Of a stretch of 15,138 bases of DNA, positions 52 to 14,800 are shown in pieces. A program made the translations under genes and the position numbers. The notes beneath the pieces are model-generated. The model had not been told where the DNA came from. It did no database searches and worked only from the letters and a program-made list of their open reading frames with translations. The stretch spans positions 1 to 15,138 of IMG/VR virus record IMGVR_UViG_3300010259_000015; one strand, 5' to 3'. Each line of letters begins with the position of its first letter. Position 1 is the first letter of the stretch. The stretch comes from a virus (lineage: Duplodnaviria > Heunggongvirae > Uroviricota > Caudoviricetes).

Positions 52-119
52 AAATGATTAAACACTGTCAGGACGAAAACGATGCTCAAACCCGACAGCC
101 TGCGCAGGGCGCTGACTGA
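3..119 (+). CDS. 3' end of the second spanin-pair lysis gene (lysB or lysC), 5' truncated; frame 3, ends TGA 117-119, overlapping the R start
   Basis: Open frame from window edge reading ...DIRQLENALARCASQVKMIKHCQDENDAQTRQPAQGAD-stop; overlaps R start (82) by 38 nt, as expected for the P2 overlapped Rz/Rz1-type architecture. Confidence 0.4.
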   Translation, partial: DIRQLENALARCASQVKMIKHCQDENDAQTRQPAQGAD

Positions 120-549
120 TGCCGTCACGGTGCTGAAAACCAGTCCCGAGATGCTGCGGATATTCGTGGATAACGGGAGTATTGCCTCCACACTGGCGAC
201 GTCGTTGTCATTCGAAAAGCGTTACACGCTCAATGTGATTGTGACCGACTTTACCGGTGATTTTGACCTGCTCATTGTGCCGGTGCTGGCGTGGCTGCGG
301 GAAAATCAGCCCGACATCATGACCACTGACGAAGGCCAGAAAAAAGGCTTCACATTTTATGCAGACATCAACAATGACAGCAGCTTTGATATCAGTATCA
401 GCCTGATGCTGACCGAGCGCACGCTGGTCAGTGAGGTTGACGGTGCGCTGCATGTGAAGAATATCCCGGAACCTCCGCCGCCGGAGCCGGTCACCCGCCC
501 GATGGAGCTGTATATCAATGGCGAACTGGTGAGTAAGTGGGATGAATGA
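82..549 (+). CDS. R: Tail completion protein R
   Basis: 155-aa ORF, ATG start; sequence and length match P2 gpR as recalled; stop overlaps S start (ATGAATGA), indicating translational coupling. Confidence 0.9.
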   Translation: MLKPDSLRRALTDAVTVLKTSPEMLRIFVDNGSIASTLATSLSFEKRYTLNVIVTDFTGDFDLLIVPVLAWLRENQPDIMTTDEGQKKGFTFYADINNDSSFDISISLMLTERTLVSEVDGALHVKNIPEPPPPEPVTRPMELYINGELVSKWDE

Positions 550-994
550 GTTTAAGCGTTTTGAAGACCGGCTGACCGGGCTGATTGAATCGCTGTCACC
601 GTCAGGGCGTCGGCGACTGAGCGCCGAACTGGCGAAACGTCTGCGTCAGAGTCAGCAGCGTCGGGTGATGGCACAGAAAGCCCCGGACGGCACCCCCTAC
701 GCGCCACGTCAGCAGCAGAGCGCCAGAAAAAAGACCGGTCGCGTTAAGCGAAAAATGTTTGCGAAACTTATCACCAGTCGTTTTTTGCATATCCGCGCCA
801 GCCCGGAACAGGCATCAATGGAATTTTACGGCGGGAAGTCGCCGAAAATCGCCAGTGTGCATCAGTTCGGTCTGTCGGAAGAAACCCGGAAAGACGGTAA
901 GAAAATTGATTATCCGGCGCGTCCTCTGCTCGGCTTTACCGGTGAGGATGTGCAGATGATTGAAGAGATTATCCTGGCTCACCTTGAGCGTTAG
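542..994 (+). CDS. S: Tail completion / virion morphogenesis protein S
   Basis: 150-aa ORF directly following R with an 8-nt overlap; length and position match P2 gpS. Confidence 0.9.
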   Translation: MNEFKRFEDRLTGLIESLSPSGRRRLSAELAKRLRQSQQRRVMAQKAPDGTPYAPRQQQSARKKTGRVKRKMFAKLITSRFLHIRASPEQASMEFYGGKSPKIASVHQFGLSEETRKDGKKIDYPARPLLGFTGEDVQMIEEIILAHLER

Positions 995-1023: not shown

Positions 1024-1060
1024 TAAACATTGAGCGGCCATGCTGGTCGCTCAATGTTTA
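1024..1060. terminator. Perfect 13-bp inverted repeat (TAAACATTGAGCG / CGCTCAATGTTTA, 11-nt loop) between convergent genes S and the minus-strand cargo gene; putative bidirectional terminator or protein-binding palindrome
   Basis: Arms 1024-1036 and 1048-1060 are exact reverse complements; located in the 71-bp gap between the stop codons of two convergent ORFs. No clear T-run on either side, so intrinsic-terminator function is uncertain. Confidence 0.45.
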
Positions 1061-1065
1061 GAGGT

Positions 1066-1851
1066 TTATGAGTGATTTTTATTTGATGCTTTGTATTCTA
1101 CAACCTTCTTATTGGCGTAAAGGAATTTTGTATATGACAGGAATATAACCAGACCTGAAATGAAATAGATGAGGGATATTATTAATAATGCTTTTTTTTG
1201 GCTGTTATTATCTTTAATCTCCTGACTTAACCATTCCGAGTCCTCCTCGTTTAGCTGTAAGAGCTTATTGCAGGCGATCTCAGGAAGTGTGTCTTTTATA
1301 AATACGTTTCGTAGCCTCTTGCAATCGGCAAGGCTATAAGTTTTATTGAATTCAACTGTTTTATTGTTGAAGGATAAAAGAACTTTGTCACTATAAACAT
1401 AGTACATCATATTTTTATATGGTATGCCTATGGCATCTCTTACTATAGCGGATTGTTTGTTGTGTATATAACATGCGAAGAGAATATAAATAATGCTGGA
1501 CAGAATTACAATTATTGTTTTAATTATGTGTGGTGGTTTTGTTATGTCACCCCAGAAGCGAGTAAGAAAAAAATACGATGTTTTTAGTTTTCCATCAATC
1601 AGCCCCTGCTGTATCATTCTCACATCTTCGATGCCTGATACATTGATTCCGTTAATTATTTTAAATAGTTGAATGTCGCGCCATTTTTTGTCGAGCATTT
1701 TTAACTTTCTGTCTGAATACTCAAAATTGAAATGATGTGCAATAAACCTCATAAGATTACTTTTACCAAAGGTAATAAATGTTAATGCTATTAATAAAAA
1801 TAGATACAAAGAGATAAACCACCGCGCATTAGTCACATTATCACTGAACAT
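1066..1851 (-). CDS. AT-rich cargo (moron) gene encoding a 261-aa predicted three-helix membrane protein of unknown function, at the S/V (orf30) variable locus
   Basis: ATG start at 1851 (minus) preceded by a strong Shine-Dalgarno (GAGGAG, 6-nt spacer); TAA stop at 1066-1068. Strongly AT-rich compared with flanking phage genes; three hydrophobic stretches (approx. residues 11-29, 108-128, 226-248); antisense to the late operons. Confidence 0.75.
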   Translation of the reverse strand: MFSDNVTNARWFISLYLFLLIALTFITFGKSNLMRFIAHHFNFEYSDRKLKMLDKKWRDIQLFKIINGINVSGIEDVRMIQQGLIDGKLKTSYFFLTRFWGDITKPPHIIKTIIVILSSIIYILFACYIHNKQSAIVRDAIGIPYKNMMYYVYSDKVLLSFNNKTVEFNKTYSLADCKRLRNVFIKDTLPEIACNKLLQLNEEDSEWLSQEIKDNNSQKKALLIISLIYFISGLVIFLSYTKFLYANKKVVEYKASNKNHS

Positions 1852-1866
1852 TACGCTCTCCTCGAA

Positions 1867-1887
1867 TGTTGTATGGTCGTTCTACAA
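1867..1887 (+). promoter_or_regulatory. Candidate Ogr-dependent late promoter element upstream of V (TGTTGT-N11-ACAA dyad)
   Basis: TTGT(1869-1872)...ACAA(1884-1887) is a perfect dyad; resembles the TGT-N12-ACA activator site of P2/P4 late promoters (my spacing count is 11); lies about 50-65 bp upstream of the V start with an AT-rich TATATAT stretch at 1911-1917. Confidence 0.45.
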
Positions 1888-1934
1888 ATGAATCCAGATA
1901 GCATAACTTTTATATATTGTGCAATCTCACACGC

Positions 1935-2570
1935 ATGAACACTCTCGCAAATATTCAGGAACTCGCGCGCGCACTGCGCAACATGATTCGTACCGGCCTT
2001 GTCGTCGAAACCAACCTTAAAGCCGGTCGCTGCCGTGTGCAGACCGGTGGCATGTGCACTGACTGGCTTCAGTGGCTGACCCATCGTGCCGGACGTTCGC
2101 GCACATGGTGGGCACCTTCCGTGGGGGAACAGGTGCTGATTCTGGCTGTGGGCGGTGAACTCGACACGGCGTTCGTTCTGCCGGGGATTTATTCCGGCGA
2201 TAACCCCGCGCCGTCTGCGTCGGCGGATGCCCTGCATATCCGTTTCCCTGACGGGGCGGTGATTGAGTATGAACCCGAAACCAGTGCACTCACGGTAAGC
2301 GGAATTAAAACGGCCAGCGTGACGGCTTCTGATTCTGTTACTGCCACGGTGCCGGTGGTCATGGTGAAAGCATCAACCCGCATCACCCTGGACACACCGG
2401 AGGTGGTTTGCACCAACAGGCTGATTACCGGCACGCTGGAAGTGCAGAAGGGCGGGACGATGCGCGGCAACATTGAACACACCGGCGGTGAACTCTCATC
2501 AAACGGTAAGGTACTGCATACCCATAAACACCCCGGCGACAGCGGCGGCACAACCGGGAGCCCTCTATGA
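1935..2570 (+). CDS. V: Baseplate assembly protein V (spike)
   Basis: ORF track begins at a TTG (1917), but the ATG at 1935 gives MNTLANIQELARAL... and a 211-aa product, matching P2 gpV; stop overlaps W start (ATGA). Confidence 0.88.
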   Translation: MNTLANIQELARALRNMIRTGLVVETNLKAGRCRVQTGGMCTDWLQWLTHRAGRSRTWWAPSVGEQVLILAVGGELDTAFVLPGIYSGDNPAPSASADALHIRFPDGAVIEYEPETSALTVSGIKTASVTASDSVTATVPVVMVKASTRITLDTPEVVCTNRLITGTLEVQKGGTMRGNIEHTGGELSSNGKVLHTHKHPGDSGGTTGSPL

Positions 2571-2918: not shown

Positions 2919-3827
2919 ATGCCGATTATCGACCTGAACCAGCTACCCGCACCGGATGTGGTCGAGGAGCTGGACTTTGAAACCATTCTCGCCGAACGCA
3001 AGGCGACACTGATTTCCCTTTACCCGGAAGACCAGCAGGAGGCGGTCGCCCGTACCCTGACGCTGGAATCTGAGCCTCTCGTCAAACTGCTGGAGGAAAA
3101 TGCTTATCGTGAGCTTATCTGGCGTCAGCGTGTGAATGAGGCCGCACGGGCGGTAATGCTGGCCTGTGCCGCCGGTAATGACCTTGATGTGATTGGTGCC
3201 AATTACAACACCACGCGCCTGATTATCACCCCGGCAGATGATTCGACCCTCCCGCCGACACCGGCAGTGATGGAATCTGACACGGATTATCGTCTGCGTA
3301 TTCAGCAGGCGTTTGAAGGTTTAAGCGTTGCCGGGTCGGTGGGTGCCTATCAGTATCATGGTCGCAGTGCCGACGGGCGTGTCGCGGATATCTCTGTCAC
3401 CAGTCCATCTCCGGCCTGTGTCACCATCTCTGTGCTGTCACGTGAAAATAACGGTGTCGCATCCGAAGACCTGCTGGCGGTGGTGCGTAACGCCCTTAAT
3501 GGCGAGGACGTCAGGCCGGTGGCCGACCGCGTGACCGTGCAGTCTGCCGCCATCGTTGAATACCAGATAAACGCCACGCTTTACCTTTACCCTGGTCCCG
3601 AAAGCGAACCCATCCGCGCTGCTGCCGTGAAAAAACTGGAAGCGTACATCACGGCACAGCACCGGCTGGGGCGCGACATCCGTCTGTCTGCCATTTATGC
3701 CGCTTTGCATGTGGAAGGCGTGCAGCGTGTCGAACTGGCTGCACCGCTGGCCGATATCGTGCTTAACAGCACGCAGGCGTCTTTCTGTACCGAATACCGC
3801 GTCGTGACCGGAGGCTCGGATGAGTGA
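2919..3827 (+). CDS. J: Baseplate assembly protein J
   Basis: 302-aa ORF; length and order match P2 gpJ; overlaps I start by 8 nt. Confidence 0.9.
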   Translation: MPIIDLNQLPAPDVVEELDFETILAERKATLISLYPEDQQEAVARTLTLESEPLVKLLEENAYRELIWRQRVNEAARAVMLACAAGNDLDVIGANYNTTRLIITPADDSTLPPTPAVMESDTDYRLRIQQAFEGLSVAGSVGAYQYHGRSADGRVADISVTSPSPACVTISVLSRENNGVASEDLLAVVRNALNGEDVRPVADRVTVQSAAIVEYQINATLYLYPGPESEPIRAAAVKKLEAYITAQHRLGRDIRLSAIYAALHVEGVQRVELAAPLADIVLNSTQASFCTEYRVVTGGSDE

Positions 3828-6889: not shown

Positions 6890-7267
6890 GTTGTATGAGC
6901 TCTGGTGGGAGCTTACATATCTATGGCGCAGAGTAAAGCCTAATCTGACAGTTCGCTCTGTGCCAGAAGCAGACGTTGCGAACATCGAGGTGTATTAATC
7001 AACGGGGAGCTGGTCACAACTATTCGGTTTATAAACATTTTTTTCGCTTTTCTGCATTAGAGACTATTGCATTAACTGGCTAAACTATGGATGATTATTG
7101 GTGTTAGGTTGCCAATGAATTAAGGATTAACTTCTGAACTCTCTGGTTAATCTAAAAGGAATATATGTGTATCATTTTACTTTGGCTGATAATTGAGAAC
7201 AGGCTGTCAACCTATAAATTAGAAAGGTTAAATTAACTGTGTTTTCTTGGATTTACTAAGGATGAAT

Positions 7268-7888
7268 ATGGCTAAGCCTGAAATTAAATATGACAATCCT
7301 GAATTGGATGTAAATTATGATTATGTCGGAATTGTTGACGGTTTAAGTTGTGACGACAGGAAAGAATTTGGCATCACAACTGAGCTGGGAAATTTGCTGA
7401 GAAGTGCGCAATTACCTGTAAAAGAGGCGCTAGTAAATACTAAGCAGGAGCTTCTTGATGCGTTAAGCACATTCCTTAAAGATGCTATGAATGGTCAGCG
7501 TTTCATGCTCCATTTTGTAGCTCATGGAAACGAAAAAGGAATACAAATTGGTACTGACTTTGTGACTTGGGATATTTTACGTCCGCATTTGCAAGAAATC
7601 AATGTAGCAACGGAACGAACACTACTTTTGAATATGAGTACGTGTAAAGGTCTTCATGGAGTTAAGATTGTCGGTGGGAATGGTGAGTATCCTTTTTTTG
7701 GTTTAATTGGTGCGAAAGATGATTTATATGTGATTGATGCGCTAAATGCAAATAAAATAATGTATTGCAAGTGGCTTGATAACCTACCAGTTCAAAAGAT
7801 TGTTCCCGAGACAAATGCGGAACTTGGTAAGGACGTTTTGTTTAATATTTCATCTGAAGGGTTTAGGAAATTAACTAACCCTGAGTGA
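7268..7888 (+). CDS. AT-rich cargo gene at the G/FI (Z/fun) hotspot: ~206-aa protein with caspase-like (clan CD cysteine peptidase) His/Cys dyad motifs; function unknown, candidate anti-phage/exclusion factor
   Basis: ORF track starts at a TTG (7247); the ATG at 7268 follows an AAGGA Shine-Dalgarno (7257-7261) with a 6-nt spacer (an ATG at 7262 is also possible). Motifs hydrophobic strand + HG (FMLHFVAHGNEKGIQIGTD) and, 40 residues later, hydrophobic strand + C-x-G (TLLLNMSTCKG), resembling caspase SHG...GIxYGTDG and QACxG signatures. Strongly AT-rich island. Confidence 0.7.
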   Translation: MAKPEIKYDNPELDVNYDYVGIVDGLSCDDRKEFGITTELGNLLRSAQLPVKEALVNTKQELLDALSTFLKDAMNGQRFMLHFVAHGNEKGIQIGTDFVTWDILRPHLQEINVATERTLLLNMSTCKGLHGVKIVGGNGEYPFFGLIGAKDDLYVIDALNANKIMYCKWLDNLPVQKIVPETNAELGKDVLFNISSEGFRKLTNPE

Positions 7889-8073
7889 CACTTTTTCTTT
7901 CACTCATAATAATTATCAAATAGTGGATGGATTTGATGGAAATTAAGTACTTAGTCTGGTGGGATGTGTGTAAGATTAACTTCCGCTCCTCGCCCAAAGC
8001 AGACTGTCAGATTTGATAGTGTTTCGGCTATGTAAATAGTCAGTCGGAAAATGAGTTTGTACAAATCAGGACA

Positions 8074-8100
8074 GGCGGGCGAATTGCCCGCCTTTTCTTT
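8074..8100 (+). terminator. Rho-independent terminator downstream of the cargo gene / V-operon
   Basis: GC-rich hairpin GGCGGGC-gaatt-GCCCGCC (8074-8092) followed by the T-run TTTTCTTT (8093-8100). Confidence 0.8.
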
Positions 8101-8103
8101 ATC

Positions 8104-8124
8104 TGTTGTTTCATCCCCTGACCA
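8104..8124 (+). promoter_or_regulatory. Candidate Ogr-dependent late promoter element upstream of FI (TGTTGT-N11-ACCA)
   Basis: Same TGTTGT hexamer as upstream of V, followed 11 nt later by ACCA; sits just after the terminator and about 75-95 bp upstream of the FI start; SD GGAG at 8186-8189. Confidence 0.4.
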
Positions 8125-8197
8125 GCCAGGACAAATAGCATCTCATGCCCTGCACAACTGAAAATACCACTCACCCATTAACCACGGAGTTAAACGG

Positions 8198-10251: not shown

Positions 10252-10403
10252 CGTTTCCGAAAAATCTGTCGGTCGATGACCTGATGGCGGATGTGGCAGT
10301 GATATTTCACTGGCCGCCATCAGAACTGTATCCCATGAGCCTGACCGAACTCATCACATGGCGCGAAAAGGCGCTCAGGCGAAGCGGAAACACGAATGAG
10401 TAA
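9976..10403 (+). CDS. E': Tail assembly chaperone E+E' fusion produced by programmed -1 frameshift at the TTTTTTG slippery heptamer (10224-10230)
   Basis: Six T then G at 10224-10230 near the end of E; the -1 frame stays open to a TAA at 10401-10403, giving about 142 aa, the size of P2 E+E'; the extension overlaps the T start, as is conserved in tail chaperone/tape-measure modules. Confidence 0.75.
10224..10230 (+). other. Slippery heptamer TTTTTTG (programmed -1 ribosomal frameshift site)
   Basis: Direct sequence observation within the last codons of E; the -1 frame downstream is open for about 58 codons. Confidence 0.75.
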
Positions 10404-14581: not shown

Positions 14582-14800
14582 ATGTTTCATTGTCCTTTAT
14601 GCCAGCATGCCGCACATGCGCGTACAAGCCGCTATATCACTGACACGACAAAAGAGCGTTATCACCAGTGCCAGAACGTGAATTGCAGCGCCACGTTCAT
14701 CACTTATGAGTCGGTACAGCGATACATCGTGAAGCCGGGAGAAGTCCACGCCGTGAGGCCGCACCCGTTGCCGTCAGGGCAGCAAATTATGTGGATGTAA
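14582..14800 (+). CDS. ogr: Late-gene transcriptional activator Ogr (zinc-finger)
   Basis: ORF track begins at a TTG (14519), but the ATG at 14582 gives MFHCPLCQHAAHARTSRY...CQNVNCSATF... of 72 aa with CxxC...CxxxxC zinc-binding cysteines, matching P2 Ogr in size and N-terminus as recalled. Confidence 0.88.
   Translation: MFHCPLCQHAAHARTSRYITDTTKERYHQCQNVNCSATFITYESVQRYIVKPGEVHAVRPHPLPSGQQIMWM

Follow-up and report, generated by a model that had tools for sequence, protein, structure and literature searches.

The S–V junction and the divergent gene orf30

The window, by which we mean the whole 15,138-nt stretch of DNA analysed here, is the late region of a P2-type (Peduovirus) prophage. The tail completion genes R and S lie upstream of V, the baseplate spike gene at the head of the V W J I H G late operon, and the open reading frames after V follow the order of P2, with G encoding a Caudo_TAP protein and FI the tail sheath; profile scans covered some of these downstream frames. 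S and V are separated by a 940-bp segment with a GC content of 31–36%, against 55–62% in its flanks, and this segment carries an orf30 homologue on the minus strand. With the orf30 start at 1851 and the V ATG at 1935, the two divergent genes leave a gap of 83 bp (1852–1934), within which positions 1867–1887 read TGTTGTATGGTCGTTCTACAA. A preliminary description had placed a TGTTGT-N11-ACAA dyad in this gap and had taken the leftward cargo gene to encode a membrane protein. Both the dyad and its coordinates are as described, and Orf30 contains three hydrophobic segments of 19 residues or more (approximately residues 8–31, 106–132 and 218–245), in agreement with a membrane protein. The coordinates of these and other features are collected in Table 1.

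Table 1. Coordinates of genes, putative regulatory elements and candidate promoters in the window
Feature	Position	Strand	Remarks
R, tail completion gene	82–549		Pfam
S, tail completion gene	542–994		Pfam
Inverted repeat, 17-bp arms	1024–1060		Annotated in P2 as putative rho-independent terminator of the O operon
orf30 homologue, AT-rich cargo gene	1066–1851	−	261 aa; three predicted TM segments
GGAGAG, strong Shine-Dalgarno sequence of orf30	1856–1861	−	4 nt upstream of the ATG; 5 bp from the left end of the Ogr site
Equivalent of P2 AF063097 10239–10266	1866–1893	+	Labelled in P2 "activator binding site; activation of pV promoter"
Dyad TGTTGT-N11-ACAA	1867–1887		Putative core of the PV binding element for Ogr, the late activator; TGT at 1870–1872
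Candidate orf30 promoter GTGAGA-19-TATGCT	start ~1893	−	PWM score 6.0
ATAGCA, weak −35-like block	1898–1903	+	Counterpart of ATAGCC in P2 PF and ATTGCC in the PV family consensus
Candidate orf30 promoter TTCATG-17-TATATA	start ~1904	−	PWM score 4.8
Candidate orf30 promoter TTGCGA-16-GAGATT	start ~1916	−	PWM score 6.8; upstream TG
CAATCT, −10-like hexamer of PV	1922–1927	+	Family consensus GCAnnCT; GAAAAT in P2 PF
V, baseplate spike gene, first of V W J I H G	1935–2570	+	Pfam Phage_base_V, Phage_spike
PF-type second Ogr site, upstream of FI	8104–8124	+	TGTTGT-N12-CCA; ATAGC and GAAAAT at the P2 PF offsets
ogr, zinc-finger late activator gene	14582–14800	+	Pfam Ogr_Delta, 2e-21; translation

Orf30 belongs to PHROG 2407, a group to which no function is assigned, and only five clusters of homologues were found, all of them hypothetical proteins. 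Pfam returned only a sub-threshold match to DUF6535 and PADLOC returned nothing for this protein, and a search of the PDB with its AF2 model (pLDDT 75) gave no fold match, the best TM-score being about 0.15. Diverged homologues with 37%, 37%, 26% and 23% identity are present in an Enterobacter MAG, Kosakonia, Pseudescherichia and Buttiauxella, and their occurrence in the same divergent position by V in other genera indicates that the Orf30 family is an old, locus-specific tenant. Among the loci surveyed below, L090, L086, L123, L159 and L140 have Orf30 homologues of 23–38% identity and about 254–264 aa beside V. The 5′ end of orf30 itself (1702–1851, minus strand, the region of TM1) is a local divergence hotspot, with 78.7% identity to P2 against 94.9% for the 3′ half. 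Beyond its 3′ end, the inverted repeat at 1024–1060 also appears placed to serve the convergent orf30.

Taken as a pattern of letters the dyad is weak evidence, and it is too short for prediction. Its self-complementary arms comprise only 4+4 bp (TTGT/ACAA), and no inverted repeat of at least 8 nt was found in the gap. Of 200 shuffled versions of the window, 56 (28%) contained TTGT-N11-ACAA and 7 contained the longer TGTTGT-N11-ACAA, which had a mean of 0.04 occurrences. The P2 late promoters PP, PO, PV and PF carry TGT-N12-ACA and are Ogr-dependent, and P2 late genes depend absolutely on Ogr (PMC3931495; PMC5694545). In its literal form TGT-N12-ACA has two matches in the window (4489 and 14917) against 4.2 expected; neither of these lies at a late promoter, and PV and PF of the window both miss the motif that the two non-promoter sites fit. 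Since the dyad pattern is near chance level, the case for a functional site rests on position and orthology. A structured RNA in the gap was considered and rejected, as the putative orf30 leader folds no better than shuffled sequences (z = −0.06); the only Rfam match was sub-threshold and fell at the terminator hairpin (1023–1061).

Orthology with P2 PV and the position of the activator site

Over positions 900–2100 the window shares 99.6% identity with Peduovirus P24A7b and 92.8% with P2. The gap matches P2 at 79 of 83 positions (95.2%), which is similar to the value for the V coding sequence (96.2%) and far above that for the 150 nt at the 5′ end of orf30 (78.7%). Positions 1863, 1873, 1878 and 1932 differ, with 1879–1931 free of substitution and both dyad arms unchanged. 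The substitutions at 1873 and 1878 fall in the dyad spacer; restriction to the spacer as a signal of selection was considered and dropped, because two variable positions are too few. In the P2 record (AF063097) the activator site is followed by an annotated transcription start of the V W J I H G operon at 10308, which is the first base of the V coding sequence and corresponds to position 1935 of the window. P2 PV and its Ogr site are orthologous to those described here: the flanking genes are the same, orf30 and V, the offsets to the V ATG are identical, and nothing structural differs. The Ogr protein encoded in the window is identical to P2 Ogr at all 71 of 71 residues. The proposal in the preliminary description that the dyad belongs to an Ogr-activated late promoter for V is thus supported by the annotated P2 site, the identity of the gap, the identical arms and activator, and the shared geometry.

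In P2 the distance from the centre of the site to the annotated start is 55 nt for PO, 56 nt for PP, 55.5 nt for PV and about 58 nt for PF, and the dyad centre in the window lies at −57 from the annotated start. Relative to the V ATG, PV of the window has TGT at −65 to −63, ATAGCA at −37 to −32 and CAATCT at −13 to −8, and P2 PF has TGT at −66 to −64, ATAGCC at −38 to −33 and GAAAAT at −13 to −8 relative to its own annotated start. These three elements agree to within 1 nt, which favours initiation on the A of the V ATG or on a neighbouring base. The sequence upstream of V reads ATCTCACACGC-ATG and has no Shine-Dalgarno sequence, and V mRNA appears to be leaderless, the start position being that of the P2 GenBank annotation. 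PV has the composition of a weak core promoter, with no good −35 element and a −10-like hexamer about 7 nt before the start, and a sigma-70 consensus scan (9 of 12) of 1852–1934 on both strands found no promoter-like site. The left half of the dyad stands exactly at the family position. In the right half ACA follows at N11 and the N12 register reads CAA, so that the literal consensus is off by 1 nt. The comparison with P2 PV that had been proposed therefore yields an orthologous site with identical arms, and in both phages an N11 spacing that misses TGT-N12-ACA. Promoters activated by Ogr or delta in other P2-like phages and in P4 share the TGTTGT left half and reliance on a zinc-finger activator, likewise lack a good sigma-70 −35 element, and differ in having 12 or 13 nt between TGT and ACA, against 11 in PV of the window; Ralstonia phage RSY1, for example, has TGTTGT-N13-ACAACA (PMC3931495; PMC5694545).

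The V-upstream regions of related phages were compared in two sets, one of 80 IMG/VR loci with V identity of at least 93% (set 1), and one of 80 loci, one genome per species, with V identity of 70–98% (set 2), drawn from Escherichia, Kosakonia, Enterobacter, Citrobacter, Pectobacterium, Yersinia, Brenneria, Buttiauxella and other genera. Among 81 such regions from many enterobacterial genera, whose sequences are otherwise often unrelated, TTGT begins at −66 or −65 in 77, the background being 1.7% per position; counted as clusters at 70% identity, the figure is 47 of 49. The TGT-anchored consensus is tGTTGTGTcA.c.accA.AaAACcc..tt..ATTGcCGC, and across the 81 loci the ATG is preceded by GCAnnCT (−14 to −8) and a pyrimidine-rich tract without a Shine-Dalgarno sequence. 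Six types of S/V cassette with mutually unrelated sequence have TGT-N10..13-ACA centred at −54 to −59. The triplet found at N12 varies among the 81 sequences (AAA in 23, ACA in 16, CAA, the reading of the window, in 10, and AGA in 8), and ACA at N11 is restricted to the P2/orf30 class. L090 and L086, diverged members of that class, retain the left arm (ATG.TGT) but have TATA in place of ACAA. From these alignments the constant feature is the left TTGT at a fixed distance, with a looser right arm, and the perfect dyad emphasised in the preliminary description is partly a peculiarity of the P2/orf30 class. What the survey clarifies is that, in many genera, the mark of the site is a TTGT placed 65–66 nt upstream of the V start codon.

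Probable Ogr activation of the V operon and alternative readings of the dyad

In our reading, held with a probability of roughly 0.88, the dyad is the element to which the activator of PV, the P2-type late promoter, binds. In the proposed mechanism Ogr would be produced after the switch to lytic growth, bind around −55/−57 and, through the alpha subunit, bring in sigma-70 RNA polymerase; the core promoter, with ATAGCA as a −35-like block, CAATCT as the −10 and no usable −35, is presumably too weak to fire alone. Transcription would begin at, or 1–2 nt from, the A of the V AUG, so that the mRNA of V W J I H G would be leaderless. The divergent orf30 abuts the left edge of the site. Contact of Ogr with the alpha subunit of sigma-70 polymerase is reported in the literature on rpoA109. 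The P2 reference record already annotates the site, its activator and their role in switching on tail and baseplate genes; all of this is textbook knowledge, and recognition of the P2 PV activator site here has little discovery value and adds nothing new in kind. Several details count against the PV reading. ACA follows after 11 nt and not 12, with CAA in the N12 register as in 10 of 81 relatives; the right arm is TATA in L090 and L086; and a better −10, TATATT at 1913–1918 (score 8.5), would put the start near 1925.

This last detail raises the alternative that PV starts at about 1925 from TATATT, giving V a short leader and centring the Ogr site near −47. ATGAAT-19-TATATT is indeed the best plus-strand sigma-70-like match in the region (8.46), and the unrelated divergent-cargo cassette of L045 has TATATAT at −23 to −17. 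However, the P2 record puts the start on the V ATG, a centre at −47 breaks the −55 to −58 geometry of PO, PP and PF, and most PV variants do without TATATA while keeping GCAnnCT at −14 to −8 and the pyrimidine-rich tract without a Shine-Dalgarno sequence. TATATA is not conserved in L090 or L086 either, and we regard a start at this position as unlikely. The opposite extreme, in which the dyad is a functionless 4+4 bp palindrome arisen by chance in AT-rich DNA, draws on the frequency of TTGT-N11-ACAA in the shuffled windows, but is scarcely credible given the identity to the annotated P2 site and the retention of the TTGT position in nearly every cluster.

A further alternative is a site that acts in both directions, with orf30, or an N-terminally shortened product of it, as an Ogr-activated late gene. 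P2 supplies the precedent: at PP/PO a dyad activator site likewise lies between divergent genes, and this single site (3057–3087) stands 55–56 nt from the starts of both P and O, both of whose operons are late. The window also has GATAAT on the minus strand at 1842–1837 (TATAAT in P2), at the same 35–36 nt from the dyad centre as TATATT at 1913–1918 on the plus strand. In contrast to PP/PO, however, only 27 nt separate the centre from the start of the leftward gene, a distance that does not allow the site to serve orf30 as it serves P and O. A transcription start 55–57 nt to the left of the centre would fall at about 1821–1823, some 29 nt inside the open reading frame and past both the Shine-Dalgarno sequence and the ATG, and the next in-frame Met is residue 34, use of which would remove TM1. 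In addition, GATAAT is about 8 nt too near the site for the family geometry of 43–45 nt, and −10-like hexamers are common in DNA of 32% GC. Bidirectional activation of orf30 by Ogr was rejected on this geometry, there being no pair of starts each about 55 nt from the site, and we consider it very improbable. The two hexamers that flank the dyad centre at 35–36 nt, TATATT and GATAAT (codons 4–5 of orf30), are thus both about 8 nt too close for Ogr, and their pairing is probably a matter of chance in AT-rich DNA.

Packing of orf30 against PV and exchange of the S/V cassette

A promoter for orf30 was sought by consensus scan and by PWM with shuffle controls, both in the window and in five diverged homologous loci. 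On the minus strand of the gap there was no sigma-70 match of 9 or more of 12 positions, and the best PWM score was 6.8 against a median best score of 7.5 in shuffled sequences. A sigma-70 promoter for orf30 was accordingly set aside, with no match above chance and no single candidate conserved across loci; the sequences that scored highest are listed in Table 1. A minus-strand −10-like hexamer ending at −12/−11 does recur in six loci, but since its reverse complement is the −10 region of PV, the recurrence may just reflect PV itself. The literature searched yielded nothing on transcription of orf30, and the text of Rousset 2022, on the cos-adjacent hotspot, makes no mention of gpV, gpS or the baseplate.

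The position of the Shine-Dalgarno sequence (1856–1861) places the orf30 transcription start at 1862 or higher, and because this sequence is 5 bp from the site any intergenic promoter falls within −55 to +20 of PV. As a consequence of this packing an intergenic orf30 promoter, if there is one, must overlap PV together with its leader. The preliminary description had gone further in holding that orf30 must be driven from the gap. That requirement is not established, since transcription may instead start inside V, and of the shared promoter space it envisaged the geometric part stands, any intergenic orf30 promoter lying under the PV footprint, while no such promoter scores above chance. P2 PF and fun(Z) form a similar arrangement, in which a late promoter at a cargo hotspot has an AT-rich accessory gene of opposite orientation beside it; there, however, 294 nt lie between the PF site and the start of fun(Z), which leaves this gene room for a promoter of its own, whereas orf30 has 83 bp in total.

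The interval between S and V varies among related phages in a manner that bears on this packing. In set 1 the S stop is 66 bp from the V ATG in 53 loci, which have no cargo, and 940 or 939 bp from it in the 16 of 80 that form the orf30 class; the remaining distances are 1031, 1255/6, 1305 and 1721 bp, each with an unrelated cargo. Homology between classes ends with the S stop codon on one side, and on the other at the V ATG or no more than about 24 nt from it, which implies that each cassette carries its own complete PV. Of 5426 complete E. coli genomes, 1480 have a match to V and 292 have the orf30-V junction, and in the sampled matches that lack orf30 similarity begins exactly at the V ATG. 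The whole interval 995–1934 can be described as an exchangeable cassette, with at least four other unrelated cargo types at the same position. The upstream genes abut the site without entering it: S stops at −69/−67, and the start codons of divergent genes in unrelated cassettes lie at −81 to −84. Individually, the divergent cargo ATG is at −84 in L045, at −81 in L082 and at −83/−84 in L090 and L086.

Regulatory coupling of PV with orf30 is a geometrically possible hypothesis that we regard as reasonable but unsupported. In its fullest form, an orf30 promoter in the gap would stand back to back with PV and the two would exclude each other's polymerase, such that orf30 would be on in the lysogen and off when Ogr loads PV, and its transcription would help to silence PV. 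We hold this combined picture to be doubtful. The candidate orf30 starts (~1893, 1904 and 1916) all fall within −55 to +20 of PV, and the tight divergent packing is repeated in the unrelated cassettes of L045 and L082 as well as in L090 and L086. The segment from −40 to −8 is the best conserved block of the gap between the P2 class and L090/L086, and the −10-like hexamer on the minus strand recurs in six loci. However, conservation of −40 to −8 is equally explained by the core elements of PV, the minus strand offers neither a 9-of-12 match nor a PWM score that reaches the shuffle median, and with the literature searched silent on its transcription, expression of orf30 in lysogens is unsupported. 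Mutual interference within pairs of overlapping or opposed promoters is known, for example, from P2 (Pe/Pc) and coliphage 186 (pR/pL), where the promoters have been mapped and the interference measured. These pairs serve as the model for the proposed coupling of orf30 and PV, with the difference that the second promoter is here represented by candidate hexamers only.

Extended to the cassettes in general, a PV borne on the cassette and a divergent cargo gene packed 13–16 bp from the Ogr site could together constitute a built-in switch between accessory and late genes. The Ogr-loaded promoter of the leaderless V would shut the cargo off at entry into the late lytic phase, and cargo transcription would keep PV tight in the lysogen; taken as a whole, we consider this rather improbable. 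If the coupling were true, it would be a modest addition to what is understood of the timing of prophage accessory genes relative to the lytic programme.

The cassette-free phages show a different feature in the S-V interval. In L084 (2465–2490), as in many of the loci L084–L163, a GC hairpin, GCCGCCGG-N6-CCGGCGGC, is placed between the −35-like TTGCCG and the −10-like CATCCT of PV, and a 74-nt segment including the hairpin has a folding energy of −21.6 kcal/mol (z = −2.45). The presumed terminator of the O operon would in these phages be embedded in the next promoter, PV.

A second cargo position, corresponding to Z/fun, lies between G and FI. At 6890–8197 the window has an AT-rich gene unlike that of P2, an open reading frame at 7247–7888 on the plus strand that encodes 213 aa, is co-oriented with the late genes and has a sub-threshold match to Peptidase_C14 (caspase; E = 0.0046). 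In the adjoining PF of the window (8104–8173) the spacer is TTCATCCCCTGA, against GCTGTCGATTAG in P2, and the upstream sequence has been replaced as well. A GC hairpin with a T run is found at 8072–8099, after the end of this open reading frame.
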